A stretch of DNA of 63,976 bases, the filler included, from Candidatus Fermentibacterota bacterium (GTDB taxonomy: Bacteria > JAFGKV01): NCBI GenBank assembly GCA_016928395.1. It is 8 parts of 8 records of this genome, joined end to end, with 100 filler letters (N's around TTAATTAATTAA, not from the genome) between each part and the next. Parts side by side here need not be neighbours in the genome. Positions count along the whole stretch, not along the records: positions 49,853 to 58,359 come from JAFGKV010000327.1; 7 more parts are not named here. One strand, written 5' to 3'. A model generated the notes under the pieces. It was not told where the DNA came from. It saw nothing but the letters and a program-made list of their open reading frames with translations, and did no database searches. The first letter of the stretch is position 1. The number at the start of each line of letters is the position of its first letter. Position numbers and translations under genes: made by a program. Below are positions 6,686-61,318 of this stretch, one piece after another.

Positions 6686-8650
6686 TCACGTCTGCTTCGC
6701 CTTCCCCGCGAACGTAAGATGCAGCGCCGGCACCAGCAGCAGGGTCAGCGCCGTCGCGACGATGATCCCCGCGAGAATGGTGACTGCCAGCCCCGTGCGC
6801 AGCTCTGCACCCTCTCCCAGTCCCAGCGCCATGGGAAGCAGCCCCAGCGCCGTGGTGGCAGTGGTCATGATCACCGGCCTGAAGCGGGTCTGAGCCGCAT
6901 CGACGACCGCGGCGCGAAGGTCAAGGCCCTCAGCCAGGGCCTGGCGCGTTCGGTCGACCAGCAGGATGGCGTCATTGTCCACGATTCCGGCCAAGACCAC
7001 AATCCCGATGCCGCTGACGATGCCGAGGCTCGTGCCCGTGATGAGCAGCCCCGCCATCACGCCGACCAATCCCATGGGCACGGTGAACATGACCACGAAC
7101 GGCAGCCTGAACGATTCGAACTCGAAGACCATGACCGCGAACTGCAACCCGATGGCCAGCAATCCCGCGACTATGAGGCTGTTCAGCGAACGTCTCATCT
7201 CCGCAGCTTCGGGCCCCAGGCCTATCCGGGTGTTCCTCGCCGTGGGAGCGAACCGCTCCGCAACGGCGCCGATCTCCCGGGCCGCCCGGGCGATATTCGC
7301 GCCCTTCACATCCACGAGAATGCGCACCGTTCGCTCACCGTTGACGTGCTCGATCTCCCCGGGGACGGTCTTCTGTCGGCAGCGCAGGAATCGCCGCAGG
7401 GGCACCAGTCCGTGATGGGTGGCCACCGGATAGGCCAGCACTTCCTCCCACGCGGCGCCTTCACCCTCTCCCGCCAGGAGGATGACCTCGATCCTGTCTT
7501 CTTCCCGGTAGTAGGTGGTGGCGATGGTGCCGCGCGCCACGCTTTGGATTGCGTCAGCCACCGCCGAGGGGGCCAGCCCCGCCGATGACACGAGATCGAG
7601 GTCTACCGCACACCGGAACTCGGGAATCCCGCTGGGCCACCGCACCTCGGCCTGCTGAATCATCGGCAGACCCGCGACGTGATGCCGGACCTCCTCCGCT
7701 TCCTCCCGGAGGGTCGTCACATTGTCGCCGGTGACCAGCACCGAAAGATCGTGGGGCCCGGAACCGAGGATATCGCCCAGGAGCGTGACGCGTCGTTTCC
7801 ACGTGATCGATCCGGCCACGCCTGCCCATGCCTCCGCCAGCCGGGGGCCCATCTCCGCGGTCTCCATCGAGCCGTCGCCGTAGGCCGTGATCAGCGCGTC
7901 CACCGCCTCCTGATTCCCGCGCAGTCCTACCCGCGCCAGAGTCTGTCGAACGCCGGGCGTGGCGAAAAACCGCCGTTCCATCCGTTCGGTGACCCGCGCC
8001 AGCTCGTCGAACGGCATGCCGGGCTCCGTGGAGACCTCGACATCCACCGCGCCGGTGTCCTCCACGGGGAGGAGTTCGACGGGAAGGAACCGTCCGGCGG
8101 CCAGAGATGCGGCCAGCAGCGTCGCCGACACGGTGAACACCGCGGGCCGATGATCCAGCACCCAGGTCAATGCACGGAGGTAGGGGGCGCGCAGGGGTGC
8201 GAGCATGTCTCTCGCGCCGGCTGAGGCCGCGCGAGGCGAGAGACGGATGCGTGACGCCAGCGCGGGCACGAGGGTCAGCGCGACCAGCAGGCTGGCCAGC
8301 AGGGCGAAAGTGACTGCCAGGGCCTGATCCCGGAAGATCTGCCCGGCGACGCCTTCGACGTAGATCACCGGAAGGAAGACCACAAGATTGGTCAGGGTTC
8401 CCCCGATGATGGCCCCGGCCACCTCTGTGGTGCCGGTGAGGGCGGCCTGCCGGGCATCGAGCCCCATCTCCCGCCGACGGTGGATCGCTTCCAGCACCAC
8501 GATGCTATTGTCCACCAGCAGGCCGACGCCCAACGCGAGCCCGCCCAGAGACATGACGTTCAGGCTGATCCCCGCGGCATAGAGCCCGATGAAGGCGACC
8601 ACGACGCTCAAGGGGATGGTAATGCCCATGAGTAATGGGCTGCGCCAGTC
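6686..8650 (-). CDS. RND permease subunit, 5'-truncated by contig end
   Basis: LNVMSLGGLALGVGLLVDNSIVVLE, GIVDNDAILLVD, RFRPVIMTTATT; frame runs into the N gap. Confidence 0.92.
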   Translation of the reverse strand, partial: DWRSPLLMGITIPLSVVVAFIGLYAAGISLNVMSLGGLALGVGLLVDNSIVVLEAIHRRREMGLDARQAALTGTTEVAGAIIGGTLTNLVVFLPVIYVEGVAGQIFRDQALAVTFALLASLLVALTLVPALASRIRLSPRAASAGARDMLAPLRAPYLRALTWVLDHRPAVFTVSATLLAASLAAGRFLPVELLPVEDTGAVDVEVSTEPGMPFDELARVTERMERRFFATPGVRQTLARVGLRGNQEAVDALITAYGDGSMETAEMGPRLAEAWAGVAGSITWKRRVTLLGDILGSGPHDLSVLVTGDNVTTLREEAEEVRHHVAGLPMIQQAEVRWPSGIPEFRCAVDLDLVSSAGLAPSAVADAIQSVARGTIATTYYREEDRIEVILLAGEGEGAAWEEVLAYPVATHHGLVPLRRFLRCRQKTVPGEIEHVNGERTVRILVDVKGANIARAAREIGAVAERFAPTARNTRIGLGPEAAEMRRSLNSLIVAGLLAIGLQFAVMVFEFESFRLPFVVMFTVPMGLVGVMAGLLITGTSLGIVSGIGIVVLAGIVDNDAILLVDRTRQALAEGLDLRAAVVDAAQTRFRPVIMTTATTALGLLPMALGLGEGAELRTGLAVTILAGIIVATALTLLLVPALHLTFAGKAKQT

Positions 8651-18105: not shown

Positions 18106-18285
18106 CCAATCGCGTCGATAGGCGCCGGCAGCTTTCCGCTGGGCTACACCGATGACAGCCCATACGAAGAGAGCGACATGGCCTTCTACCTGGTCGTGCC
18201 TGTCGATGTTGATGGCAATGCCAACCCTGACGGCGTGCGAAAGGGCGCCTACCGGTACACGATGAGTCTCACCGTGTCGGACTAG
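18106..18285 (+). CDS. 3' end of a probable secreted protein (FN3-like C-terminal module), 5'-truncated; absent from ORF track
   Basis: Manual translation PIASIGAGSFPLGYTDDSPYEESDMAFYLVVPVDVDGNANPDGVRKGAYRYTMSLTVSD*, resembling the C-terminus of the next gene. Confidence 0.7.
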   Translation, partial: PIASIGAGSFPLGYTDDSPYEESDMAFYLVVPVDVDGNANPDGVRKGAYRYTMSLTVSD

Positions 18286-18452: not shown

Positions 18453-21400
18453 ATGGCCATGACTGCACTATGGGTACTCGCGGCGCTGATAGTGGGGGCG
18501 ATGGTTCCCGCATTCGCGGAGGAAAGGATCGGCGGCCCCGACTGGTATGTGCAGAGTGCACTGGATAACCAGGGCAACATACACATTGCCTACGTCTCTC
18601 CTGCGATGGACGTGTTCTACAGAAGATACGACGGTTCGACGTGGAGCGACTCGTCGTATCTGGGGAACTCGACTCCCTGCTGGCTCACCTACACTTACCC
18701 GGCCATTGCCGTCGGATCTGACCTTGTTCCCCACATCGTGTACGGAACCGATACCGGGAGCTACCCGCATGACCTCAACTACTTCACCTACGCGCGCGCA
18801 TCAAACCAGGCATGCACGTCGTGGGTGTACACGACGATTGGAAACGACGGTTTGCGGAGAGGTACCGCGGACATAGCCCTGGACGCGAGCAATCAGCCGC
18901 ATATGGTCTACAAACAGACCAATAAGTACTCACCCTGGTGGCACAAGATCATCTACCGCGACCCTTGCGGCATTGAGCATGTCATTCGAGAGAAGTGGGA
19001 TCCGCAGCAGGTCGTCAGGCCCCGGATCGCCTATAGCAACGGGACCGTGCATATCACCTGGTGGGAGACCGGCAACAACAGGACCAATATCTGGTATGCG
19101 GCGTCACCCAACTTCACTCCTCAACAGCTGAGCAATGTAGGCTACCGGCAGTATGTGGACTCCCCAGGTATTGGCGTTGCACCCGACGGTCATGTAGAGA
19201 TCGCCTACCTCGTCGCCGATTGGAATGGATCGCCGTACTATGTCGGACTGTTCTCTACTCGGCCGGGATGGACCAATGGCGTTCAGCTGACCGGTGCAGC
19301 CGCCCTGAGCGAGGAGTTCGAAGACTTCTGGCCCCCGAATGTTGCATTTCACTCCAATGGTGACCGGTATATCTCATGGTACCACTGGGCGGAGCACGAG
19401 CACTACTACATGGGCCCGGGGGGCACCAATGTGTTCTACTCCCCGGGGCACATCGACGTGTGTGCCGGTGCGGGCGGGGCGTACTACCTTCGCTGTGCCG
19501 GTGATCCCGGCCCCATGTACTTCCAGCAGATCGCCGGGGGGGGATCCAATGTCCCGCCGACAATCCAGATGCTGTCGCCTCCTGCCCAGAATGCGGAAGC
19601 CAATGCCTCCTACACACTCTCGTGGTCCGATGACGATCCTGACAACAACGCGACGATCGCCCTCTTCTATGACACTAACTCCTCGGGCTTCGATGGTACG
19701 CCTATCCCGGGAGCTCAGAACATCCCGGAGGATCCCGACGGCGCCGGTGACCAGTTCATCTGGAACATCACTGGGCTGCCTGACAACTCCCGCTACTGGG
19801 TGTACGCGACAATCGATGACGGCACCAGTCCCGTCACCGTTTCGTACTCGCCGGGCTACGTGTTTGTGAACCATGTGAACGATCCACCCTCGATCACCCT
19901 TACGTCGCCCTCATCGCCCGATACCGTCGGGGGTGGCACCTTCGAGATCGCGTGGACCGACGATGACCCCGATGACGACGCATCGATATGGCTCTTCTAC
20001 TCCTCGGTTGATGCTCCCAACGAATCCACACTGATCGTATTCGACCTCTCCGAGGATGATGCCGAGGACAGCTATGCGTGGAACATCTCCAGTATGCCGC
20101 CCGGCACGTATCGGATCTACGCCCGTATCTTCGATGGCCAGTACAATGGCTATTCCCACTCCACCGGCACGGTGACCGTCCTGACCAGTATCACGTTCGC
20201 CCCCACCGATGACGCCAGTGTATACCGCGACTGGGAGCCTGACCTCCCCCATGGCGATCGGGATGACCTTGACGTCGGTGCTGATGACCAAGGCACACCC
20301 GACGAGCTGGCATTCTTCAGGTTCGAGGTTGCGGGTTTAGAGTATGGCGTCGTCCGTGCGTATCTCCGCCTTCGGTGCGTTGAATCAGGGGGTGGAGGAG
20401 GGGCTCACTCGGTGAACAGCACGACATGGACAGAGGAAACGCTGACGTGGAACAACAAACCCGGCATGGGCGCCTCTCCGGTTTCGTCAATCCCATGGGT
20501 GTATGAGGGCAACTGGTACGCGTATGAGGTTACCTCGCTTGTAGTGGGGAACGGCACCTACGCCTTCGCCTTGCGTTCCACCGAACCCAACGGAGCCCAC
20601 TTTGCTTCCAAGGAGTACGAAACCACCAGTCTTCGCCCCTACCTTGAGGTGCTCATGGGAGGCGAGATCCCCGAACTTCCGCCCACAGCGCGTATCGATT
20701 CGATCCTTCCCAACCCTGTCATCCAGGGATTCCACCCCGCTGTCGGGTTCTACGGAAGCGGTTGGGACAACGATGAAGGCGGCGCCAGTATCGTCGCGTG
20801 GACGTGGACCTCCAGCCTCAACGGCCAGATCGGCACCGCGTCCTCCTTCACCCTCGCGCCGACGGCGTTGGCGACCGGTGTTCATACCGTGTCACTCACG
20901 GTGCAGGACAATGAGGGCGAATGGTCTGTACCCGACACCTCCTCTCTGGAAGTGCTCCCCCCCGACACCTCACCCCCCACCTGGCCCGACGGAACCGGGA
21001 TCCAGGCCGTGGAAGACCTGGCAAACGGAGGATCTGTCAGACTACTCTGGAATGCCGCAACGGATCAGAACCCCCCGATTCGATACAACGTCTACTACAG
21101 CACCTCTTCGCCCGCATTCTCCGGGACATGCCAGAGCGACGTGAGCTGGACTCCTGGCCTCGACTACTCCTGCACCTTTGTGGTGCCCGGGCTCACTGTC
21201 GACGTGCCATACTACTTCGGCGTCCGGGCCGTGGACCTCGTCGGCAACGAAGACACCAACACCGTGGAGCTGATCTGCACTCCGTCGGAGAGTGGGCCTC
21301 CTTCCTTCGTAAATGACCCCTCCGTGTCTGGGATCACCTCCGGATCGGCATTCATCTGGTGGAGCACGGACGAACCCACCACGGGGATAGTTGGCTACTG

Positions 21401-22343
21401 GGTCGGCCCTGACGATAGCACTGCGGTCGAGGATCCCACGATGGCCACAGATCACAGCGTCCACCTCACGGGGCTGCAGGCCGCAACCGCCTACTTCTTC
21501 CGGGTCTACGCCGTTGACTCTTCCCAGAACTGGATTCAGAGCGATGTCGACACCTTCACCACCGCCCAGCTCCCGACATACGAGTATCTCCCCGTCGATG
21601 ACGCGTATGTCAGCAGTGCGGAGCCGGATGCCAACTTCGGCGGATCAACCCTCCTGTTGGTCAGTGCCGGGCAGATCAGCTACCTGAAGTTCGTCGTGCC
21701 CGACGAGGGCGACGTGGTGGGGGCCGAGCTTCGCGTGGTGGCTGCGACATCGGGCGATAGCGCGACAGTGTGGCCCGTGGCATCCATTACCTGGGCGGAG
21801 GAGACCATCACCTGGAACACCAGGCCCTTCCTGGGAGGCACGGCGATTGGTGGGATTCCGGCCCAAACCTCCGCGTACGCGTACACAGTTGACCTCTCGG
21901 CGTACATTACCGCTCCAGGAACCTACTCCCTGGCCATCAACGGGCCACCCAGCCGCGGAGGCGCATTCTACTCGAAGGAACACACCAACGATGCCCAGCA
22001 GCCCTGTCTGCGAGTGACCTGCCAGGAGGATGGGCAACCTCCGTCACAGGTCGGAGGGCTGCAGTGTCTCGCCTTGGAGTCTGATGTCTTCCTCACCTGG
22101 CAACCATCAACCGACAACGTGGGGGTGGCCGGATATCGCGTCTATCGCGGGAGCTTCCCATACTTCCAGGTCTTGCCTCGAACGCTCATCGCCTCGCCTC
22201 AGACCACGCAGTTCACAGATCTGTCCGTGCTGGGCGATCCCTCGGTTGACCACTTCTACGCGGTGACGGCATTCGACGACGCCGGCAACGAATCGATCCC
22301 CTCAGCCCGAGTGGGAGAGAAGGAGTATGAACTGCTAGACTGA
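18453..22343 (+). CDS. Large secreted modular protein: propeller-like N-domain, Ig-like repeats, two DNRLRE/CBM96-like domains, PKD- and FN3-like domains
   Basis: Signal peptide; paired W.DDDPD..A.I.LFY repeats; two DDA.V...(F/L)(R/K)F...W.EET(L/I)TWN..P modules; FN3 motifs YYFGVRAVD, WQPSTDNVGVAGYRVYR. Confidence 0.85.
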   Translation: MAMTALWVLAALIVGAMVPAFAEERIGGPDWYVQSALDNQGNIHIAYVSPAMDVFYRRYDGSTWSDSSYLGNSTPCWLTYTYPAIAVGSDLVPHIVYGTDTGSYPHDLNYFTYARASNQACTSWVYTTIGNDGLRRGTADIALDASNQPHMVYKQTNKYSPWWHKIIYRDPCGIEHVIREKWDPQQVVRPRIAYSNGTVHITWWETGNNRTNIWYAASPNFTPQQLSNVGYRQYVDSPGIGVAPDGHVEIAYLVADWNGSPYYVGLFSTRPGWTNGVQLTGAAALSEEFEDFWPPNVAFHSNGDRYISWYHWAEHEHYYMGPGGTNVFYSPGHIDVCAGAGGAYYLRCAGDPGPMYFQQIAGGGSNVPPTIQMLSPPAQNAEANASYTLSWSDDDPDNNATIALFYDTNSSGFDGTPIPGAQNIPEDPDGAGDQFIWNITGLPDNSRYWVYATIDDGTSPVTVSYSPGYVFVNHVNDPPSITLTSPSSPDTVGGGTFEIAWTDDDPDDDASIWLFYSSVDAPNESTLIVFDLSEDDAEDSYAWNISSMPPGTYRIYARIFDGQYNGYSHSTGTVTVLTSITFAPTDDASVYRDWEPDLPHGDRDDLDVGADDQGTPDELAFFRFEVAGLEYGVVRAYLRLRCVESGGGGGAHSVNSTTWTEETLTWNNKPGMGASPVSSIPWVYEGNWYAYEVTSLVVGNGTYAFALRSTEPNGAHFASKEYETTSLRPYLEVLMGGEIPELPPTARIDSILPNPVIQGFHPAVGFYGSGWDNDEGGASIVAWTWTSSLNGQIGTASSFTLAPTALATGVHTVSLTVQDNEGEWSVPDTSSLEVLPPDTSPPTWPDGTGIQAVEDLANGGSVRLLWNAATDQNPPIRYNVYYSTSSPAFSGTCQSDVSWTPGLDYSCTFVVPGLTVDVPYYFGVRAVDLVGNEDTNTVELICTPSESGPPSFVNDPSVSGITSGSAFIWWSTDEPTTGIVGYWVGPDDSTAVEDPTMATDHSVHLTGLQAATAYFFRVYAVDSSQNWIQSDVDTFTTAQLPTYEYLPVDDAYVSSAEPDANFGGSTLLLVSAGQISYLKFVVPDEGDVVGAELRVVAATSGDSATVWPVASITWAEETITWNTRPFLGGTAIGGIPAQTSAYAYTVDLSAYITAPGTYSLAINGPPSRGGAFYSKEHTNDAQQPCLRVTCQEDGQPPSQVGGLQCLALESDVFLTWQPSTDNVGVAGYRVYRGSFPYFQVLPRTLIASPQTTQFTDLSVLGDPSVDHFYAVTAFDDAGNESIPSARVGEKEYELLD

Positions 22344-49852: not shown

Positions 49853-50901
49853 CAGATGTGAGAACGACCAGCCGAAGGTGGCCTTGAAGGTGAGATACTT
49901 GATGAGCAGGATGGCGATGAGTGCGGTCCAGATCTGAATACGGAGTGCATTCGAGCTGGTCCCCATGAAGGTCTTGCCCTTCAGATTCTGCTTCAGGGTC
50001 TTGAAGAAGATCTCGATCTCCCAGCGATCCTTGTAGATCGCGGCAATCGTGGTCGCACCGAAGGTGAGATGGTTGGTCAATAGGACGATCTCTACTTCCT
50101 TTTTAGGATCCCATACCACCACACGACGCAACGGTATAGGGCACTTCAGTTTCGAGACCGGGCCGGTGAACCGGATGAGCTGGTCTGATCGAATGTGCCG
50201 ATTCTTGGGCAGGTTCGTTCTTCGATCACTTCGTACGCCGCATTCTCTTTCTGCCGTGTGACGAAGTAGATCTCGCCACGCGTCCAGGCGTAGTACAGCT
50301 CATAGTCGTTGTAGCCACGGTCCATGGCGACGATGCTGTGGGCGGGAAGCTTCACGATCCGCGCAATGTTCACCTCGTGGGTCGTGCCATCGGTGATGTG
50401 GACATAGGTGGGGAGATAGCCGTCATGGTCCAAGAGGAGATGGAGCTTGACTGCACCCTTGGTCTGCCGGAACGTGGCCCAGGGAAACAAGGCGAGGCAG
50501 AGGTCGATCACACTGGCGTCCAAGCTGAGCAGCTTGTTGCGGAAACGGAACTTCTTCTTCCGTGGGCAGGCAGCGCCTGTGCAGGTCTTCAGTACCTGGT
50601 AGAACGTTCGCTCGTACAGCTCCCAGGGCCGGTGCGCGTTAGCGTACGAAAGAGTCGAGCGTTTCGGGGACGTGGCAACGCCGAGATGGTTGAGCTTCCC
50701 GAGACAACACCTGAGGCCATCGCAGATCTCGCGGAGGGACTTGCTCTGTGCCACTTGGCAGAACAGCATGGCCACGAACTGGTCCCATGAGCTGAAGCCT
50801 TTGGCATACCGGTCGGACCTCAGCTCCTTTGCGGTGCGAGCAAACTCATGCGTGGAGATGATCGAGAGGATTTGACTGAAGAGGCTGGTCGGATGTACCA
50901 T
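49853..50901 (-). pseudogene. IS4-family transposase (DUF4372 + DDE) with a 1-bp frameshift near 50213
   Basis: FSSWDQFVAMLF.Q...SLREI, LDASVIDL, KLHLLLD, MDRGY in one frame; LPKNRHIRSDQLIRFTG...YKDRWEIEIFFK.LKQ in the shifted frame. Confidence 0.85.
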
Positions 50902-51084
50902 GAGGCGTCACTCCTTGGTGTGGCAGCATATCGTTGGGAAGCGAAACTGCCCCCAAGGAGTGACATCCCTTCGGCAGGATCAACGGTAGGCATCCGGATG
51001 AGGATCAGCACGTCGTCCCACACTCCGTCGCCTGCCTCTCTCCTCCAACTGCCTGATGAGAATCGTTCTTGGACAGATGCGATG
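49853..51084 (-). mobile_element. IS4-family insertion sequence; left end near 51080-51084, right part cut by contig end
   Basis: Transposase plus terminal sequence catcgcatctgtccaagaac on the minus strand; abuts a helicase fragment. Confidence 0.8.
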
Positions 51085-51764
51085 CTTACACCAAAATGTG
51101 GCTCCTGCGGCTGCTCTTGGTGGATCCCAACGGGGTCATCCGCGAATCGAAGGGAGAATCGCTTCCCTCTCCCAAGTATGACGCCCTGGACCGGATCGTG
51201 GGAAAGACGGTGGCCGATGGTTGCAAGGTGGTGGTCTTCACCTCCATCAAGCGCGGCGTCACCAGGGAACTGGTCATGCGCTATGCTCGGTTCGGGGTCT
51301 GTCTCATCGATGGGGACGTGGATGCGTTCCCGCGGAAGAAGAAGGAGAGCCAGAGGGAGACGATTCGTCGCGAGTTCCAGTTCGGCGACACCGGGGTTCT
51401 CATTGCCACGCTCGGCACCATGAGCGAGGGGGTCGATCTCAGTGCGGCTTCAACCGTCGTGTTCCTCGACAAGCCGTTCACGAGCACGGCGAGAGACCAG
51501 GCCATCAAACGCGTGCACCGTCTGGGTCAGACCAAGCCCGTGGAGGTCATCAGCATCGTGGCCCGGGATCCGGCCATCGATGCGGTCATTCGAGACAAGG
51601 ATACCGGTGAGCACGAGACCATTGACGAAGCCATCGAGCGTCTCATCGACAAGAAGGAGCTTCTGATCCAGCACGTCGTAGACGGGGCGCGGCTCTCGCC
51701 TGAAGAACGGCGTCTCCTGGAAGAGAGGGAGAACCTGGGCCGTGTCATCTCCTCGCTTGCCTAA
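51081..51764 (+). pseudogene. C-terminal HELICc domain of an SNF2-type helicase, cut from its 5' part by the IS4
   Basis: SPKYDAL, KVVVFT, SEGVDLSAASTVVFLD, DQAIKRVHRLGQTKPVEV; no Walker A/B and no RBS-linked start. Confidence 0.8.
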
Positions 51765-52146
51765 TCGTATCCGCTGCCGATTCTCAACGAATGCGCGTAG
51801 TGCCCCCGGGTGGGCTACTTGGAATGGGTGCAGGGCGAGATCGAGGAGAACCTGCTCACCGAAGAGGGCGAGGATGCGCATCGGGCCGGCTTAGGACGCT
51901 GGCAAGATGTCAATTTGCTGACCCACAGAGCCGTCCGAACATGGTTTCCAGGACGGCTGGAGTATTACCACGGTGAAGAAGCAAAGGAATGAAGAAGGGA
52001 GCCCGTCGGCGGCGGTGCCGGCGAAACGACAAGCCGACGGCTGCGGAGCTATTCGCGCGGAATCCTCGAAATCGAGAAAGGCGCGAGCTGGGGGTCGATA
52101 GTGCGGAGAGAGCAGTGCAAGAGCGAGGCCACGGTCCCCGCTCCGG

Positions 52147-54585
52147 TCATCTCAGGCCGTAGCCGCGACGGTTCTCTTGCCACCAGGTCTTCCAGTCGAA
52201 AGACTCTTCCTCGGGGTAGTGGTCGGTCAGTCTTTGGATGGTGTGCCGCACTTCAGAATCGAGAGCAGGGTTGTCTCCGCCGAGCAATGTGATTAGCGAA
52301 TCCACCGCCTTGGGCTTACCGAACGTGCCCAGCGCACGAATGCAGGCCGCTCTCCGAGTGCCCGAGGTGTCGGCAAGGCCCTCTACCAGGGCGTTGAATA
52401 CCCTCTCATCCTTGCTTTCCCCCAAGGCTCCATACAGCTTGGTGGTGAGATCTGGGATTGCGTTGAGAGAGGGGTCTCGCGCGAGATCGAGCAAGGCGGC
52501 GATGGCCCGTTCATCACCCGTGGCTGCCAGAGCGCTGATGGCTCCATCCCTCACGTGTCGGTTCGAGTGGCGAAGGGACGCGAGAAGCACGTCCACGCAG
52601 GGGGGGCCGATCCGGCCCAAGACCGCGGCCGCGGCGTCTCGCTGGCCAGTCTTCGATCCATCGGCAATGTCCATCGCATCAGTGAGAAGTCGTATGCTCT
52701 CGGGTGATGAGAGGTAGCGCTGGTAGTCCTTCCGGGAATCGGTACTCAGCAAGGAGCTATTCAATCCCCCGAGGGCCTCAGACCGAGTCTCGGGATCGGG
52801 ATCTCCAAAGAGGCGAGCCAGGTGCGCGATGCTCTCACCGGATCCTTGAGAGGCAAGCCCTCTGGCCACCTCAAGGCGGACATCTCGGCTTGTATCGGTG
52901 CTCGCCGCCTGCAATGCGGCCACTGACCGGTCATCGAAAATGCCTCCCAAGGCTCGCGCGGCGCAGACTCGAATGCGGATGTTGTCGGACTTCATCGCCT
53001 GGACCAAGGCGGGAATGGCCGGTTCACCGATGGACTCTAGCATGCCCGTGACCCTCTGCTGCTCGCTCTTGAGGAGCGGTATTGCCTCGATGAGACGGCG
53101 TACCCGCGGCGCGTCCCACAGCGCTGCCGGCATGGTCGCAATGCCGGGATCCTCATCGTCATCCTTCAACGTGGACCGTTCGAGCGCCGCCAGGCACGCG
53201 GTCCGTTGTTCCGCATCACGGGCAAGTCGTTCGATGAGGATGTCTATCGCTTCGCGGCTCCGATGCCGGCCCAGCGCGGCGATGGCCTGCTGCGAGACGG
53301 CATTCACGCTGTCATCCATCAGAACTACCAGTATGGCACGGGACTGCGGGGTTCGAATCCCTCCAAGGGAACGGGCAACACCCTCCCTCACCAGGGGTCG
53401 CGCATCTGTGCGTGCACGGTCGAGTTGATCGAGAGACGATGCCCCCAGAGCTGCGAGTGACTCGGTGGCACGATCACGGAGGGCGGCATGGGACTCACCC
53501 TCTCGACCGAGGCATCGCACCAGGGCAGCCACGACTTGGGCATCCCTGTGTCCGCGCAACGACTGGGCGGCACCTGCCCGAATCGGCGCAATGGAGTCAT
53601 CGAGTGCAGCGAGGAGCATGTCCCGCACGGTCTCGCCAGCGTTCTGGAGCACTGCGACAGAGGTTTCGCGTACCCGTGGCAGTGGACTTGCCAGCGCCCC
53701 GAGCAACGCCGGATAGCCGAACGCACGGGCCAGCATGGCCACGGCCTTCGGAGGGAATCCATCTCGCATGGCCTCATCGTAGGGCGCATCCGTCGGGTCG
53801 GTGGGCGGGGACGTAACGGAGTGAGGAGTCGGGCACTCTCCCCGGTAGGACTCGTGAAGGGCCCGACCTCCCGGCGTCTCCAGGCGGAGACGCCCGCTCA
53901 CCCTGGCACCGGTGTAGTAGTAGGTCCCCCATCCGACGCCGAAGAGGGAGTAGTTGTCTCCGAGGGCTTCAGCGTGACAGGTGATGGTCATGGTCGCATC
54001 AGCCGCGGAATCCGACCCCACCATGTGCAGACCGAAGTACGGAAGGAACTCCCGGATCTCCGGCGCGAAGCCGATGATCACGGAGTCAACTTCCTCCGCG
54101 AACGACTGGTGGATGTCGAGCTTCATGGTGCGGACATCCCGGAACGCCGGCGCACGGGCGCCCTTCATGGCATCCAGCCTGGCCTGTGCGTCCCCCGCGT
54201 GCCTGCCCTGGGGATGAGCCGCAAGGTAGCGCCTCCATGCCGCGTGGGAGTGTTCCCCAGCGGCGAGCTGCCAATCAAGGCTGTCCCATGCCGCCTGCGC
54301 TTCTTGGGAAAACACGCCGTCGGGATATCGTCCAAGGAAACGCTGGTACGCCTCAGGGGTACCCCAGCCCTCGCACTCCTCGAACGTGAGTTCCTCGATC
54401 CTATGGCGGGCCTCGGGCACGAATCTGCTCTGGGGAAATGCGGCGATGAAATCCTCGTACCCCTCCAGCGAGCCAAAGCGCTCCACTTCCCGCCACCTCC
54501 TCTTCTCGGGGTTCGGTAGGATGCTGACCAGGATCACCAGACCGAGCACAACGAGCAGGACGCGCAGCAACCGTTTCTTCGTCAT
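52147..54585 (-). CDS. Membrane-anchored HEAT/PBS-lyase repeat protein
   Basis: GAAGGAGG RBS; N-terminal TM; three Y..F...(F/Y/H)P.(G/S)...A repeats; many L.D....VR..AA.ALG repeats. Confidence 0.82.
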   Translation of the reverse strand: MTKKRLLRVLLVVLGLVILVSILPNPEKRRWREVERFGSLEGYEDFIAAFPQSRFVPEARHRIEELTFEECEGWGTPEAYQRFLGRYPDGVFSQEAQAAWDSLDWQLAAGEHSHAAWRRYLAAHPQGRHAGDAQARLDAMKGARAPAFRDVRTMKLDIHQSFAEEVDSVIIGFAPEIREFLPYFGLHMVGSDSAADATMTITCHAEALGDNYSLFGVGWGTYYYTGARVSGRLRLETPGGRALHESYRGECPTPHSVTSPPTDPTDAPYDEAMRDGFPPKAVAMLARAFGYPALLGALASPLPRVRETSVAVLQNAGETVRDMLLAALDDSIAPIRAGAAQSLRGHRDAQVVAALVRCLGREGESHAALRDRATESLAALGASSLDQLDRARTDARPLVREGVARSLGGIRTPQSRAILVVLMDDSVNAVSQQAIAALGRHRSREAIDILIERLARDAEQRTACLAALERSTLKDDDEDPGIATMPAALWDAPRVRRLIEAIPLLKSEQQRVTGMLESIGEPAIPALVQAMKSDNIRIRVCAARALGGIFDDRSVAALQAASTDTSRDVRLEVARGLASQGSGESIAHLARLFGDPDPETRSEALGGLNSSLLSTDSRKDYQRYLSSPESIRLLTDAMDIADGSKTGQRDAAAAVLGRIGPPCVDVLLASLRHSNRHVRDGAISALAATGDERAIAALLDLARDPSLNAIPDLTTKLYGALGESKDERVFNALVEGLADTSGTRRAACIRALGTFGKPKAVDSLITLLGGDNPALDSEVRHTIQRLTDHYPEEESFDWKTWWQENRRGYGLR

Positions 54586-54898
54586 GGGTATCCCTCCTTC
54601 AACGATGAGTGGCACCACGAACGGTAAGGTCTCTGTGCGGTACTCTCCCGTCAAGGAGCCCTATGGGTTTGACCTGCATGCCCCTGACCACGAGAGCGAG
54701 CGCGATGCAGCACTGTCCACCGACGAACAGCACCTATCCATCATCGTACAGGCGGGACCTCTGCTGCGCACGGTATGCGTTTGCCCGTTGTCGTGCCATC
54801 GGAGATGTCCTTTCCCGAGCACGCGTCTGCCAGCGATTTCGGTTCCTTTACTCCATGGGAGGTGAGGAGTGAGGAGATGGTGGCAAGCAGTCAGGACT

Positions 54899-54970
54899 AA
54901 GTCCGGCCGCTAAGGTCGTGGGGCGCCCTCAGGGTTTTCGAGGTTGAGGATAGGCCGAGTTGTAGCCCCG
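54899..54970 (+). repeat. Family A repeat copy followed by a GTAG-REP half
   Basis: gggcgccctcagggttttcgaggttgagga..gagttgtagcccc matches the reverse of 61617-61665. Confidence 0.7.
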
Positions 54971-55508
54971 GCGCCCATGAAGCCGGTCTAGGGACATCCT
55001 ATGTCTTCAGTCGTCTCGTGGTCTGTGTGACGGGTGAAGTGCTGCGCAGCATGCAGTTCTCCATCGTCAGGCAACCGTTCCTTTCGAGCCGGACCGGTTC
55101 CCGTTTCTCCGTTGTGCCCCACCCACGACTCGTCAAAGTCGCGCGGCGGGGTGCACAGTCGGCAGTCCGGCCTGTCTCCACACTCCCATCTCAGCGAGCG
55201 AAGTGAGGTGTCCATCCATCGCTCCATCATTCCAAGATCACGCACGCGCCAGCAGTCGCCAGTTGGCCGCGAGTCCGGCGGCGAAGACAGCGATGTCCTG
55301 GCCCCATTGAAGTGGCTCTTCGGGCGTTCAGTTGCCGGCTGACTCGACCTTTCCCCGTCAGCAATCACGTGGTCCTGGGTGTTCCGGGGTCTTGTGGTGA
55401 TTAGAGAGGGCTCTTGGGTTACCCGTTCGCCATCCGATTGATATGGGGTGTGAGGACGGTACGGGTGATATCTTGTGCGCCGGCGGCGCTATCACTGGAG
55501 GTGATGCC

Positions 55509-55847
55509 ATGAGTCGCGGGGCGTATGTCGGGCTGCTCTCGCTAGTTATCGCGTTAGCCTTGGTCTACTACTTGGCAAAAGATCAGGCGACCACGGTGGG
55601 CAGGCGCGGCGCGGAGGCGCCGGTGGGAGTAGCGAGTGCGGCGAAGTGTATCGCCAATCAACGGACCCTGGAATCGGTCATCGCCATGTACCGGATGACG
55701 CATGACGGGGAGAATCCTACTACGCTTTCGGATCTCGTGCCGCGGAATCTGCCCCTGATTCCCGAGTGCCCGGAAGGCGGCGCCTATCTGTACGACCGCA
55801 ACGCGGGCACTGTCTCCTGCCCCAATGGCCACCGCGACGAGAGGTGA
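55509..55847 (+). CDS. Pilin/pseudopilin-like small protein
   Basis: GGAGGT RBS; N-terminal hydrophobic helix; CIANQRTLE...Y...P..L.DL.....CPEGG.Y...V.CP.GH; lacks canonical GFTLIE. Confidence 0.6.
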   Translation: MSRGAYVGLLSLVIALALVYYLAKDQATTVGRRGAEAPVGVASAAKCIANQRTLESVIAMYRMTHDGENPTTLSDLVPRNLPLIPECPEGGAYLYDRNAGTVSCPNGHRDER

Positions 55848-56042
55848 CGCTGCCGCGTCTTTGGCGGTACCGTCTTCGGCAAGGGAATCTGGGGCTGCGG
55901 TTCTTCATCGGGTGGCGCTTCCGACTTGCGCCGTGGAGGAGACGGGGCGTAAGTTGACCGCGACTATGCTTTGGTATGAGTCAGGCCCTGCATCAGCCGG
56001 GGCGCGTTGCAGCCCGATTCAAGCATTCACGAAAGGATTCCG

Positions 56043-56183
56043 ATGAAGCTGTCTAGGACCCGCATAGCCTTTGTCTTGCTGATCTGCTGCCTGGTCACCG
56101 CGGCCGTGGTCTGGGCAGCCGAATCCGCTCCGTCCAACACCGTCGGCTTCTTTACTTTTGACCTCGGGGCCGGCACTCGATAG
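56043..56183 (+). CDS. 46-aa secreted microprotein (signal peptide + ~21-aa peptide); absent from ORF track
   Basis: AAGGA RBS; MKLSRTRIAFVLLICCLVTAAVVWA|AESAPSNTVGFFTFDLGAGTR*. Confidence 0.7.
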   Translation: MKLSRTRIAFVLLICCLVTAAVVWAAESAPSNTVGFFTFDLGAGTR

Positions 56184-56281
56184 GCTTTCCTCCGCTCTTC
56201 TTCCCGTCGCGTGCGAGGGCGTCTGTCACGTTCGCACGCATCTCCTTTCCTGTTCCTCAGCTCCCTCGGAGGACACTCGCA

Positions 56282-58359
56282 ATGAGATTTCCATCCTGTG
56301 CGCTTCTGGTTCTCGTGCTCGCATGCTCCGCTGCTCATGCTGACGTCAGCCAGGAGGAGTGGATCCCGCTGGCCGGCGATGAGCACCCTGCACCGGCGCT
56401 GGTCAGTTCCCACGATCTTGGAGTCGGCGCGGTGGAGCTGGAGATCGATCTGGCAGGGCTTGTGCGTTCGGATCTTGAGACCAAGGGAGGCAGGTTCTCG
56501 CGGCTGAACGTGGTTGACGCCGGTGTGCAGGGAAAGGTCGGCCGCATGGAGCTTCCCGCGCTGCGGCTGATAATCGCCATACCCTACGGCGCAGACCCCA
56601 CGCTCAGCGTGCAATCGGAAGAGGTCGTCGAGTTGAGCTTCCAGGAACTCGGTATCACCGCGCCTATCGTCCCGGTTCAAGCTCCGGTCGAGAAGCTGCC
56701 GGGCGCCAGGGAACGGGCAGCGTTTGACATGGATCCTGCGGCGTATGAGACCGACGCCTACCAACTGGAAGCCGCGGTAGCTCTGGGACAGGTGGGAGCG
56801 ATCCGAGGGCATCGATTTGTGGCGCTGGAGTTGTCCCCGGTAGACGTGAACCCGGTCAGGCAGCGGGTGCGGATTCTCCGATCTACCTCGGTGCGGATCG
56901 ACGTCTCGGATTGCGACCTACAGAAAACGAAAGAACGCGCCCAACGCTACAGCAGCCGTGCGTTTGACGGGCTGAAAGCCCGGGTGCTCCTTGGCCCCTC
57001 GTTGAGGACCAGGGATCTGAACGGCATGCCCAATCCTCCCAGACTGCTTATTATCACCGAACCGGGTTGGGCCGGCAATGCCAACCTGCTGGCCTATGTT
57101 GACTGGAAGCGCGCCAAGGGGTTCCGCCCTGAGCTGGTGACCACCGGCACCACGGGCACCACGAAGGAAGCCATCAAGAACTACATCCAGAACGCGTATG
57201 ACAATTGGGCGATACCACCGACCTCCGTACTTCTGGTCGGGGACACTGGGGGAATCCCCAACTGGGTCGGCAGTACCACCAACAACCCGGCCACCGATCT
57301 GAACTACACGATGCTGGAAGGCGATGACTACTTCCCAGATATCGAAATCGGGCGCTGGTCAGTGGCGGACGCCACGGATCTGAACAACATTGCCAGCAAG
57401 TCACTGAGCTATGAACAGGTCGGGTGGACCGGCAACGATACGTGGGAGAAGTATGCCGTCTTCATGGCCTCCAATGACAACTACTCGATCACGGAGGCGA
57501 CCCACAATTACGTGATCAGCAACTATCTCCAACCCGATGGCTACAGCTATGACCGGCTCTACTGCCATACCTACGGCGCGACGACCCAGCAGGTTGCCAA
57601 TGCTCACAATGCCGGGCGGTCGCTCTCGATCTTCTCGGGCCATGGAGACGTCACCTATTGGGCAGACGGGCCGGTGTTCTATCAAAGCAACGTCAATAGC
57701 CTCACCAATACCGTGTACCCCTTTGTGCAGAGCTACGCCTGTCTTACGGGCCAGTACACCGCCGCCGAGTGTTTCTCGGAGACGTGGATCCGCGCCACCC
57801 GTGGCGCCATCGGCATGATGGCCTCGTCGGTCTACTCCTACTGGACAGAGGATGACATTCTCGAGAAGCGGGCCATGGAGGGCTTCTGCGCCACTGTGAA
57901 CGCTGGCGAGGAGAACCAGACATGGCCCGGCGGCATGATGAACTATGCGAAGCTTCGGTACTATGCCCACTTCGGCAACATATCCACGACTCGGCGATAC
58001 TTTGAGATGTACAACATCATGGGCGATCCGACCATCAACCTGTGGACCGCTGTGCCGTCGGCCATGACGGTGACCCACGATGCGACCATGGGCATCGGGG
58101 CCGCGTCGTTTGACGTTACAGTGAGCAACGTGGGCGACTGGGTCTTGATCTGTGTGCATGACGAGAACGATGAGGTTTACGCGACCGAGTACCTGTTTGC
58201 TAACGGCACGGCAAGCCTCGATCTCGGCGCGGGTGCTTCAACTGTGGGAACTCTCCATGTGACCGTAACAGGCCACGACCGCGTGCCGTACCAGACCACG
58301 ATTCCCATCACAGCGCCCAGCGGCCCGCACGTGGTATACGCGGGCTCGACGATTCTGGG
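56282..58359 (+). CDS. Gingipain-like C25 cysteine peptidase (propeptide + catalytic + Ig), 3'-truncated
   Basis: Signal peptide; WK..KG, IKNYIQNAY.NW, VLLVGD, DIEIGR, FSGHG (His), SYACLTG (Cys), YNIMGDP. Confidence 0.9.
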
Positions 58360-58459: not shown

Positions 58460-59619
58460 AAACAGCCGTTCGATCCGTCGAGGATGCAGTCGCGGATGGT
58501 GGGCGTGCTCCCCCCCTCGCACAGGATGCCAGTCCCAAGCACGGAGTGGAACGACCCTTCGACCGTCGGCGACGCGCCACCTGTCACGTGGACCCCGACG
58601 CCCGTCACGTCGTTGAAGTAGTTCCACTCTCCCGTCGTGGGGCCTCCCAGAATCAGGGATCCTCCATTGCCCGAACAGGCGAGTGCAATGTCGTCGATGT
58701 ACGAGCACTGACATGCCTTGACATGCCCATTGACCCTGGTCAATGAGATACCATTCGTGCAGTACTCAAAGGTGGAGCCAATGACGTATGCCTCCATGGT
58801 GAAGGGGGATTGGGGAGAGAAGCACACGCCAGTGGTGCAGTACTGGAAATCGACCCCCATGACCGTGTAGTGATCGTAGTAGTAATAGGGATCCTCGCTT
58901 GCCCAGATGCCGAAGGTACAGTATTCGATAGATCCGCCGTCGACGAAGACATCCGAATGCCACATCTCGAATCCCTTGCCACAGCCTGAGATCTGGGGAT
59001 AGGAGAAGTATGAGGAGTCTCTGATCAGGTAGATGCCGGCGCCCGTCACGTTGTCGACCCGAAGGTCGTTGAACGTGATGTCACAGTGGTCGAGGTAGAG
59101 CCCCTTGCACGCCGTCTGCCCGTGTATTCTCAGGTTCGAGACTCCGAACTGTTGGTATCCGCTGTTGTAGAAGTACACCGCGCCATCCGGCTGCCACGGA
59201 TCCCATATTGGAGGATTCGAGATCACTTCGATGTCCGCAATATGCATGTTGTAGATACCGTTGAAGTACATGCCATGGCGAGCACCTCCGTCAATTTTGA
59301 AGCCCTCGTCCGGTCTGCCGAAGTTCAACCCGCCCCCATTTCCGCTGAAGTAGACGGTGTAGTTGTCCTCCCCGCCATGGATCTTGACGTCTTCCTCCTC
59401 GGCGACGGACCGCACCGTGACTCCCGACTTCAGGGTGATAGACTCGTAGTAGGTGTAACCCCTGTTGATCTCCGAATGGACTATGACAACGTCTCCCGAG
59501 CTGGCGTCGTCTATATGCTCTTGAATGGATTCTCCGGGGTAGACGTGCCATGCCTGTTGTGCATGAAGCTGCATGGGCAAGACTGTCGAAACGACAATCA
59601 CACCAATCAAATGTCTCAT
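58460..59619 (-). CDS. Secreted right-handed beta-helix protein, 3'-truncated
   Basis: Signal peptide; VYPGESIQEHIDDASSGDVVIVH...YYESITLKSGVTV; repeated C..G(I/V) strands. Confidence 0.8.
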
Positions 59620-59836
59620 GATATGCCCCTTTGATCGCGTGCCTGAACTGAGCGGATTCATTCAGATGGACATGCTGCATGTCCATCCGCAGCGATGGAG
59701 AATTCGCGTCAAGGCGGTCGTGAGCGAATGATACGTCTCATCCTCGCTTCCTCCTCTGGTCGGAGACCCACCAGGGGTCGATGCCCCTGGCTCATCGAAT
59801 CGAATGTGGAAAGCTCTACGATGACGCATCGGCTGC

Positions 59837-61318
59837 TCATCTGACGATCACCACTTCTCTGGTAGCAACGAACTGATCTGCCGTCAGCCTGACCAGATAC
59901 GTGCCGTTGGGGAGATCTCCACCGTTCTCCAGTCGGGGCTTCCATAGAACCGTGTGCTCACCGGCCTGTTCGGGTCCGCCTGTAATGACAGCCACCTGAT
60001 GGCCGGCGAGGTCATAGACTCTGATCTGGACGAGAGCAGGCTCTGGAATGCGGTAGCGCAGATCAATACCGTCCCGGCCCTGATTTGGTGCGAAGGCCTC
60101 AAACGCATACCCCTCGGGGATGCACCCTTCTGCGATTTCTCCTGCCAGTGGCACCTCGCAGGTACACCCGAACTCCGACGTGCTTCCGTTCCCGTTCGTC
60201 GCCGTGCAGGTGACCCGGGTCCCGGGGGCAAGCGCCGGCGTCATAGTATAGCGATATGTACTCCAGACCGGCCCCTGGACGATTTCCTCCGCGTCTCCGA
60301 GATACGTCATGCCGCTGTACACATAGTCGTATCCAGCCTCCGAGCAGACACCCCGTACGCTCGGATCGGCGATGAAGATTTCCACGACGCAATCGCGCAT
60401 GCAGCGAAAGTATACCGTGGTGCTCTCCGTGTCCGTGTTCATGGACTCGCACAGCGGCGTATCGATCTCCTCGTTGACTCCAGGGCCGTAGACCCCATCG
60501 ACGAAGTCGACGCCGTGGAAGTTCTCCACTCCGGGATTCAAGAGGTCTATGCCGCCTCGACACTCGTAGATGGAGTTTCGACTGATGGTGACATAGTCGG
60601 TTATGTCACCTATCAGATATATCCCTGGGCCCCCATGAGAGTGGGCGATGATGTTCTCGTCAATGAGGTGACCGGGGCTGTAGCCGATGAGGACACCCTC
60701 ATCGGCGCCCATGGGATACCCGTCCAGCCCCTCGCCCAGGCGGTTGTCGCTTACTGTTACCTGCCCGTTGTCGCATTCGGTGTGTGAGATGTTCACGAGC
60801 TCCCAGTAGGCGTTGCAGACTTGATTGTCGCGAAAGAGCACGGGCCCAACCGTGTGGCTCAGGTGTACTCCGCCGAGAGGAGCGCTGAACAGATCCGCCG
60901 TGCCCGTTCGGTCGGTGCCGATGATGTTGTTCACGATCTCCACATCGCCGCAGTAGCCCAGAGAGATGAACGTGCTGCGGGCGCAGGAGAGGATGTTCCG
61001 CTCCTGCAAGTCATCGCCCCCGATCCGAAGCCCCCTGACGCGCGCCGCCGAGAGACATGTGCCGGATTGTCGGCCGCACTCGGTGCCCGTCGGGTCGATC
61101 CCGAGGTAGCAGCCGGTCACCTCGATGTCTTCCGTGACATCTCCGGACTCAGGCTGAGCTCCTGCAATACCGATGACAGACGCGTCGAATCCATTGATGC
61201 ACAGCCCCTTCACTGCGACGTGGCTGGCGCGACTGATGGCGATGCTGGCGCCATTGCCCGGGCCGGCCCCCTTGAGTTCGATCTCGGGCCCATAGGGATT
61301 CGGATCGCCGCCGATGAA
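59837..61318 (-). CDS. Beta-helix protein with C-terminal FlgD-Ig/T9SS-like domain, 5'-truncated
   Basis: Frame open to contig edge (DPNPYGPEIELKG); GCYLGIDPTG, NNIIGTD, ISRNSIY, GSTSEF; C-terminus VYDLAG...L.NGTYLVRL. Confidence 0.8.
   Translation of the reverse strand, partial: FIGGDPNPYGPEIELKGAGPGNGASIAISRASHVAVKGLCINGFDASVIGIAGAQPESGDVTEDIEVTGCYLGIDPTGTECGRQSGTCLSAARVRGLRIGGDDLQERNILSCARSTFISLGYCGDVEIVNNIIGTDRTGTADLFSAPLGGVHLSHTVGPVLFRDNQVCNAYWELVNISHTECDNGQVTVSDNRLGEGLDGYPMGADEGVLIGYSPGHLIDENIIAHSHGGPGIYLIGDITDYVTISRNSIYECRGGIDLLNPGVENFHGVDFVDGVYGPGVNEEIDTPLCESMNTDTESTTVYFRCMRDCVVEIFIADPSVRGVCSEAGYDYVYSGMTYLGDAEEIVQGPVWSTYRYTMTPALAPGTRVTCTATNGNGSTSEFGCTCEVPLAGEIAEGCIPEGYAFEAFAPNQGRDGIDLRYRIPEPALVQIRVYDLAGHQVAVITGGPEQAGEHTVLWKPRLENGGDLPNGTYLVRLTADQFVATREVVIVR

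Follow-up and report, generated by a model that had tools for sequence, protein, structure and literature searches.

A conserved microprotein gene of Candidatus Fermentibacterota homologous to the N-terminal element of a larger secreted protein family

The stretch of DNA analysed here, hereafter the window, comprises 63,976 nucleotides of a Candidatus Fermentibacterota bacterium (assembly GCA_016928395.1) and is made of eight contigs joined by N spacers. The contig at positions 49853-58359 carries a gene of 46 codons plus TAG (56043-56183, + strand; ATG at 56043 and TAG at 56181-56183), whose product, a microprotein, is predicted to be exported. Comparison of its homologues shows that this open reading frame (ORF) is a genuine, independently conserved gene, and it has its origin in a larger secreted family, named here family A. 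The proteins of that family begin with a leader, an exposed motif, a first strand and a turn, and profile comparisons show the microprotein, as judged by homology, to be a free-standing copy of these four elements and nothing else. We consider it very probable that these statements of identity hold: that the gene is real, that selection acts on its peptide, that it stands alone and that it is homologous to the N-terminal element of family A.

In uncultured phyla, most small exported proteins go unnoticed or unexplained. The evidence of selection on the microprotein is unusually clean, and its origin can be traced to the signal peptide and first strand of a larger secreted family. The new microprotein family, with this traceable origin, is a solid result.

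A small gene conserved at the peptide level

The start codon is preceded, 5 nt upstream, by a Shine-Dalgarno-like GAAAGGA (56031-56037, + strand) that was read from the sequence, and the same heptamer precedes the microprotein start in two of three homologous metagenome loci, L098 and L100. The product, MKLSRTRIAFVLLICCLVTAAVVWAAESAPSNTVGFFTFDLGAGTR, shows three basic residues (K2, R5 and R7), 19 hydrophobic residues ending in VWA and a 21-residue tail. Residues 1-25 (56043-56117, + strand) are predicted to form a signal peptide or a signal anchor. The small residue found at position -1 in both the microprotein and family A points to cleavage after Ala25, between VWA and AES, which would split the product into MKLSRTRIAFVLLICCLVTAAVVWA and the predicted mature peptide AESAPSNTVGFFTFDLGAGTR (56118-56180, + strand). 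The homologous part of family A is the linear motif at the N-terminus together with the first beta-strand and the turn. With its 19 residues, the hydrophobic stretch could also stay uncleaved as a membrane anchor. The AlphaFold2 (AF2) model of the microprotein alone gives a helix at residues 5-27 and coil for the rest, with a predicted local distance difference test (pLDDT) value of about 51. According to Pfam and NCBIfam, the 46-aa protein belongs to no family and shows no match to a C-terminal sorting domain of type A (Por_Secre_tail or FlgD_ig-like) of the type IX secretion system (T9SS).

Most of this layout had been noticed in a sequence-only reading of the window, which described accurately the 46-codon ORF with its ribosome binding site, a gingipain-like C25 peptidase gene 98 nt away on the same contig and, on another contig, a 1296-aa protein whose tail it compared with the microprotein.

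Homologues were obtained by three routes. A word-indexed search of 5.8 billion proteins gave three, of 46, 68 and 47 residues (P0004-P0006), one of which NCBI lists under a Candidatus Eisenbacteria metagenome-assembled genome (MAG) as a hypothetical protein; longer fused forms were sought by a further word search among longer proteins, and none of nine candidates scored. A metagenome scan found the same small ORF in three loci (L098, L099 and L100). Finally, 1.84 billion representatives were searched exhaustively with HMMER. At E <= 0.001 this yielded 12 proteins, of which five are small (P0006, P0007, P0009, P0010 and P0011) and three are longer members of family A, described below. The other matches were set aside: P0012 and P0013 are repetitive translations and were dropped as not meaningful, and the Ig-repeat proteins P0008 and P0014, with a strand APTNTVGxFTYNL, were taken as generic strand likeness. 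Including the copy in the window, the microprotein family contains 11 distinct sequences (10 distinct homologues) of about 42-47 codons.

In the alignment of the 11 sequences, residues W24, A25, E27, S28, P30, S31, N32, T33, V34, G35 and F37 are invariant and define the common core pattern WA-ES-PSNTVG-F. The stop codon lies 8-9 codons past the invariant Phe37 in all 11 members, while the last 8-9 residues and the signal-peptide residues flanking the core vary between them.

Four DNA copies were compared: those of the window, of L099 (61% GC) and of L098 and L100 (50% GC), the overall range being 50-62% GC. The 16-codon core VVWAAESAPSNTVGFF (56106-56153, + strand) is invariant at the amino acid level and under strong purifying selection, with no nonsynonymous difference in any of the six pairs and a proportion of synonymous differences (pS) of 0.49-0.89. 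Third positions vary in 13 of the 16 codons and first and second positions at none of 32 sites, and silent sites are near saturation across the four copies. Variation restricted to third positions indicates selection on the peptide, and not on an RNA element or a decaying fragment. The assumption that the small ORF is conserved was thus confirmed, with a conserved stop in 11 distinct sequences and an unchanged core in the four copies. A second sediment study contains a variant with six differences inside the ORF, four of them synonymous and the other two, R5K and R7H, located in the n-region of the signal peptide.

Two metatranscriptome runs compared with the microprotein region gave only short, poorly matching pieces, and a literature search found no paper with the string PSNTVGF.

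Family A and its coupled gene B

The three longer HMMER matches, P0015, P0016 and P0017 (194-271 aa), show a signal peptide followed by ESAPSNEVGF, ESEPSNTVGF or ESGPSNTVGF. P0016 in turn recruited 23 proteins of 242-301 aa, and these sequences make up the secreted family A (about 250-310 aa; P0015-P0038), of which HQ591_03390 of a Zixibacteria MAG in NCBI (P0034) is an example. In an alignment of 24 sequences the invariant columns are concentrated N-terminally (S24, S27, N28, V30 and G31), with E23, P26, T29 and F32 nearly invariant, and in an alignment of 19 sequences A22, S25, P27, S28, N29, V31 and G32 are invariant. The N-terminal motif ES-x-PSN-x-VGF is the best-conserved part of family A.

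Alignment of the microprotein profile with that of family A by hhalign gave a probability of 97.9% and an E value of 5.7e-13 over 44 columns, from the signal peptide through the motif and the first strand to the turn. The matches are reciprocal: among 15,777 six-frame ORFs, the hidden Markov models (HMMs) of family A match the four microprotein ORFs (E values of 6e-9 to 5e-7) and nothing else, the ORF of the window being matched at 6e-9 by the first model and at 1e-8 by the second. Both groups share a signal peptide followed by ES-x-PSN-x-VG-[FY], a first beta-strand and a turn. They differ in that members of family A continue for about 230 residues and are followed by a gene for a T9SS cargo protein, B, whereas the microprotein stops after the first strand and lacks such a neighbour. 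The missing part corresponds to the two jelly-roll-like domains of family A, and the family A HMMs, run over all frames of the window and of L098-L100, found no continuation.

The AF2 model of a family A protein (pLDDT 85) shows two beta domains, with a basic tail after them. Residues 22-26 have a pLDDT below 50, while the strand at residues 30-37 is placed confidently in the first domain; the N-terminus has the look of a binding element, in which a strand comes after a linear motif that is conserved and exposed. No family for A was found in Pfam or NCBIfam, and Foldseek comparison of the model with the PDB gave no match at E <= 0.001. The best VIA-align Z values were 5.4, with a designed double-stranded beta-helix, and 5.1, with Bacillus Ena1B, weak matches that show a common jelly-roll or cupin-like arrangement and are not evidence of kinship. 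In the ESM Atlas, the nearest clusters are unnamed and mostly from Cloacimonadota. Family A was found in 20 of 79 genomes of the phylum of genome G207, which holds the closest relatives of the C25 protein, with one match each in frames of 233-343 aa. In the phylum of genome G001, A-like domains occur solely inside giant ORFs and without the motif (six of 206 genomes).

The family A loci examined (L131-L155) show a further regularity. Of 20 A loci, 13 carry 3' of A a second gene, B, which is homologous between them and has the same orientation as A; the stop codon of A and the start codon of B often overlap. Contig ends truncate three of the remaining loci, and the other four gave no match to the B profile. 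Full-length genes downstream of A, where fetched, all end in a Por_Secre_tail T9SS sorting domain (five of five), and A has none. No match to the B profile was found in the window or in L098-L100.

Co-folding of mature A with B, the latter stripped of its sorting domain, gave an ipSAE of 0.74 (0.00, 0.74 and 0.77 in three runs), against 0.25 for the best of three controls. The ipSAE mark is reached by 58 of 80 solved complexes and by two of 110 mismatched pairs, counts that hold roughly here because our own alignments were used. Contacts overlap between the runs by at least 10%, and the pLDDT of the partner is at least 76. Confident contacts join residues 20-29 of B, its first mature residues, and residues 78-100 and 136-140, with the second domain of A (residues 171-214). 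The model supports binding of A and B, short of proof, and suggests docking by N-terminal strands in the A-B system. This undescribed, translationally coupled pair is seen at L151:4697-6696, L152:3818-5832, L153:4197-6298, L154:3512-5535 and L155:3795-7468, and it may be a better experimental entry point than the microprotein.

Other genes recur beside A. In many loci (L132, L135, L136, L138, L141, L142 and L149), two genes are divergently placed beside the A-B pair, ~200-450 nt upstream of A on the opposite strand: one encodes a membrane protein of about 210-230 aa that is conserved (MAYLESAVVVYLR..YYP.GFDFPL), and the other is TrmB-like. An SSB gene takes their place in other A loci.

Possible action of the microprotein

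The sequence of the microprotein is compatible with the following mechanism. A Sec-type signal peptide would export the product, and cleavage behind VWA would leave a peptide of about 21 residues or, without cleavage, a 20-residue tail would remain tethered outside the membrane. Such a peptide would not fold alone, so that it would have to act through a partner outside the cytoplasm, onto which it would lay its strand and N-terminal motif by beta-strand augmentation. The partner may be the same envelope component that reads the N-terminus of family A, and the peptide there could be a minimal ligand, a competitor or a cap. We tentatively favour this reading of the microprotein as a free or membrane-tethered docking strand for an envelope partner, while giving it somewhat less than an even chance. 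If it is true, a fragment of a protein has here been retained in nature to serve as a ligand to the partner of its parent protein.

In a more specific and distinctly less likely version, the microprotein would be a docking strand that became separated from its parent protein in nature. Family A would plug into an envelope acceptor through its hyper-conserved motif and first strand, possibly in a T9SS-linked surface assembly given that A is translationally coupled to a T9SS cargo protein, and some lineages would keep the plug as a 21-residue peptide which caps, competes for or activates the acceptor. It would then consist of a strand alone and act by beta-augmentation outside the cell.

Donor-strand elements are known as N-terminal extensions of chaperone-usher pilins and as C-terminal strands of Bacteroidota type V pilins. 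As we propose for the microprotein, they are short exported beta-strands with alternating hydrophobic residues that need the sheet of another protein to be structured. They differ in being parts of full pilin subunits, while the microprotein has no pilin domain, lipobox, conserved Arg/Lys site or conserved protease linkage. A literature search joining the microprotein, donor strands and beta-strand augmentation returned nothing relevant in those parts of the sources that were accessible.

Several results weigh against a docking strand. In the A-B model, the motif residues of A (24-33) are not among the confident contacts, so B is probably not what the motif binds. No gene is common to the four microprotein neighbourhoods. 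The family is rare (about 11 sequences), and any narrow role specific to its lineage could account for the conservation. The microprotein gave no real match in 206 genomes of the phylum of G001 (single-sequence query; weak signal-peptide-like matches only, best E 0.004), no small frame in 79 genomes of the phylum of G207, where long A forms only were found, and no match in 18 genomes of the phylum of G210, 14 of the phylum of G305, 151 sampled from the phylum of G304 and five more; these counts mean that it was not found in the genomes searched and are no proof of absence. Furthermore, the proposal depends on export and cleavage, which we infer from the amino acid sequence.

Among the alternatives, an uncleaved single-pass regulator has the best standing, although we regard it as unlikely. 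It would have its N-terminus inside and its C-terminus outside, and the short outside tail would modulate a complex in the membrane or periplasm, much as MgrB and AcrZ do. These small single-pass regulators, as well as the FtsZ-capping MciZ, have 40-50 residues and act by binding a larger machine; MciZ, which is cytoplasmic, caps its polymer by adding a strand to a sheet. The microprotein is of similar size, with no sequence relation to them and no linked partner. Its uninterrupted 19-residue hydrophobic stretch suits a membrane span, AF2 gives one long helix (5-27), and conservation begins inside the end of that helix, at VVWA. On the other hand, family A has the same type of N-terminus, with a small -1 residue, on a soluble two-domain protein, which makes cleavage likely there; conservation is highest outside the membrane segment, and no partner gene is linked.

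A secreted peptide acting by itself, either a pheromone or a self-assembling (amyloid-like) surface peptide with its activity in the aromatic strand VGFFTF, is improbable. The product is short, predicted to be exported and encoded in its own transcription unit, and the aromatic stretch is strongly beta-prone. However, no receptor, processing or export genes are linked to it in the loci examined, and the invariant polar ES-PSN is shared with a folded family, which is a poor fit to a pheromone that co-evolves with its receptor.

Gene neighbourhoods, the C25 peptidase and the FN3-like tail

The microprotein gene and the C25 gene (56282-58359, + strand) are separated by 98 nt (56184-56281), with a predicted folding energy of -29.2 kcal/mol (z -2.2). 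This gap contains a hairpin with a 9-bp GC-rich stem (56209-56239, + strand), a possible terminator or attenuator, and hairpins are also found 3' of the microprotein stop in L098 and L100 (z -5.5 in L100). A scan of 55800-56400 for consensus promoters and terminators found none, and an Rfam search of the same region gave no match. In L098 and L100, the microprotein gene lies downstream of a divergently oriented cation-efflux gene, and in L098 a convergent gene follows on its 3' side; these two flanking genes indicate that in L098 it is its own unit. In L099, the gene is followed by an unrelated membrane protein and then by a methyltransferase.

Two short elements were seen in these loci. A 28-codon ORF with a signal-peptide-like start (MRVLFVVCCFLAAVPHSQA...) lies about 120 nt past the microprotein stop in L099 (L099:2345-2431, + strand) and was not seen in the other loci. 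A common segment of ~45 nt (..CGTGCAATTC.TGCAG....GTGCATAATTTGCACACA..) is found ~200-400 nt downstream of the microprotein in L098 (~8270-8340) and L100 (~1640-1700), close to the 3' end of the convergent gene; its conservation may stem from coding or from a regulatory site.

A short ORF located 98 nt upstream of a secreted protease gene, with a hairpin between them and with conservation of its amino acid sequence rather than of RNA, could also be a cis-acting leader peptide or secretion monitor, in which stalled translation controls the downstream gene, here C25, through the hairpin. Secretion-monitor and arrest peptides such as SecM, MifM and VemP show a conserved arrest motif at the end of the ORF and lie upstream of one regulated gene. 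The microprotein differs in both respects, as its last 8-9 residues vary and its downstream genes are different, the one in L098 being convergent and the one in L099 encoding an unrelated membrane protein. Since the same motif also heads a folded protein family and no Rfam match exists, we judge a leader peptide to be quite improbable.

The C25 gene, which is cut by the contig end, encodes the Pfam domains Propeptide_C25, Peptidase_C25 and Peptidase_C25_C (Ig-like), with E values of 3e-56, 1e-9 and 2e-8. The protein contains the stretches ...FSGHGD... and ...SYACLTG..., whose GHG and ACLTG presumably hold the catalytic His and Cys of the family. It was rejected as the T9SS sortase PorU, since it scores 52 bits with the PorU model (NCBIfam NF033707) against a cut-off of 420, a score lowered by the cut at the contig end.

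The sequence-only reading had drawn this gene into a speculative proposal, in which the microprotein would be a free copy of the C-terminal donor strand of cargo proteins and would act with the adjacent protease in a strand exchange like that of type V pili. Apart from the adjacency in the window, it relied on a gapless match between the peptide and the tail of the 1296-aa protein, and the comparison of neighbourhoods gives the adjacency no support. In 80 loci around relatives of the C25 protein, no relative of the peptide was found (best tblastn E 0.57), and reading by eye of the upstream 1.5 kb of nine orthologue loci revealed no similar ORF. Conversely, none of the three other microprotein loci, in the DNA available, has a C25 gene beside the microprotein. 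As to whether the full C25 protein ends in the same tail, its orthologues end instead in a T9SS sorting domain (L005, L006, L008 and L011) or in an FN3-like tag (L001 and L002).

Type V pilins of the FimA/Mfa type are lipoproteins processed by Arg/Lys gingipains. By the usual definition of a lipobox, adopted for comparison with these pilins, the microprotein has none: Cys 16-17 lie inside its hydrophobic core and are not conserved in the 11-sequence alignment. The same alignment contains no conserved Arg/Lys processing site, and the invariant mature core has neither Arg nor Lys. Furthermore, no Pfam pilin family was found among the neighbours of the microprotein, within the 64-kb window or in the other loci.

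The second support, likeness to the 1296-aa protein (18453-22343), was examined in the same way. This secreted protein ends in ...AGNESIPSARVGEKEYELLD directly before its stop codon (longer end stretch ...FYAVTAFDDAGNESIPSARVGEKEYELLD) and carries a C-terminal FN3-like domain (22020-22343, + strand), with ESIPSARVGEKEYELLD as its last strand at 22290-22340. Comparison of the microprotein profile with 29 FN3 tails by hhalign recovered the gapless register first claimed, over 19 columns and with a pairwise E value of 0.0019, but with a probability of 14.5%, and the HMM of the microprotein family did not list the 1296-aa ORF at E <= 5000 among the 15,777 six-frame ORFs. With the last 107 residues of the protein as query, FN3 matches were found in 92 of 121 genomes (a tally that includes G073). 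Inspection of 37 matches in 30 loci gave ends that read GNESAPS, GNESVPSA, MSAPSNEV and similar; none of the 37 lies within 20 residues of the protein end, 25 running on for 101-414 residues and 12 reaching the end of the locus. As the segment is internal in all 37 matches, ES.PS..V is not the terminal tag that had been claimed. By sequence comparison it belongs to FN3 domains in general, where it forms the F-G loop and G-strand region and is usually internal.

The local likeness between this region of FN3 (PF00041-like) and the microprotein consists of GNES-A-PS-x-x-V in the former and AES-A-PS-N-T-V in the latter, with the difference that the microprotein has no preceding FN3 body and has a start codon and signal peptide instead. 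A six-frame scan of 765 kb found the pattern ES.PS..VG in all four microprotein ORFs, at the end of the 1296-aa protein, once off-frame and nowhere else. The resemblance is thus not absurd, but it appears post hoc and weak: the gapless register exists, and kinship is poorly borne out by the profile comparison. A looser match had been drawn to the tail at 18106-18285, which is indeed another FN3-like end and is even less like the peptide.

A further likeness, to the first strand of LamG domains (..A.W.FDEGSGT..), was seen between the microprotein VGFFTFDLGAGT and both L085:1426-2277 (+ strand) and FN3-LamG proteins in L114, L115 and L128. That of L085 (APSGAIAHWSFDDGTGT, HMM E 0.03) may be a generic feature of jelly-roll first strands.

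Taken with the score of the C25 protein in the PorU model, these results make the strand exchange linked to C25 very improbable. The adjacency of the microprotein and C25 genes looks accidental, the protease is probably not the partner of the microprotein, and the proposed link to a gingipain-driven strand exchange is unsupported and should be dropped. The broader notion of that reading, a mature peptide docking as a free beta-strand on some other protein, lives on in the mechanism favoured above, with an N-terminal strand as its source.

The sequence-only reading had also considered a stub of a truncated longer gene, and the microprotein is in fact homologous solely to the first ~40 residues of the 250-310 aa family A, whose members are distant homologues that continue as long proteins, but a non-functional remnant, the 5' end of a broken family A gene not yet decayed, is the least credible explanation of all given the same stop position in 11 distinct copies, the nearly saturated silent sites with no amino acid change in the core across genomes of 50-62% GC (the chance that at least 13 changes are all silent being ~0.26^13, as roughly 26% of random changes are synonymous), the failure to find the rest of A downstream in any frame, and variation confined to third codon positions, which argues against an overlapping element as well.

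Other genes of the window were also noted. Directly upstream of the microprotein gene, a 134-aa ORF (55443-55847, + strand) encodes an N-terminal hydrophobic helix and a Cys-rich C-terminal part; by eye it resembles a pseudopilin or competence-pilin-like protein, and it has no Pfam, NCBIfam or PDB sequence match. A transposase with DUF4372 and DDE_Tnp_1 domains (50146-50901, - strand) lies near the start of the contig, so the neighbourhood may be rearranged. A literature search found no paper joining type IX secretion with Fermentibacteria. On the following contigs, two secreted beta-helix (NosD/Beta_helix) proteins are encoded at 59837-61213 (- strand) and 58460-59661 (- strand), and one of them ends in a FlgD_ig-type T9SS sorting domain, which indicates that the organism has T9SS-type cargo.

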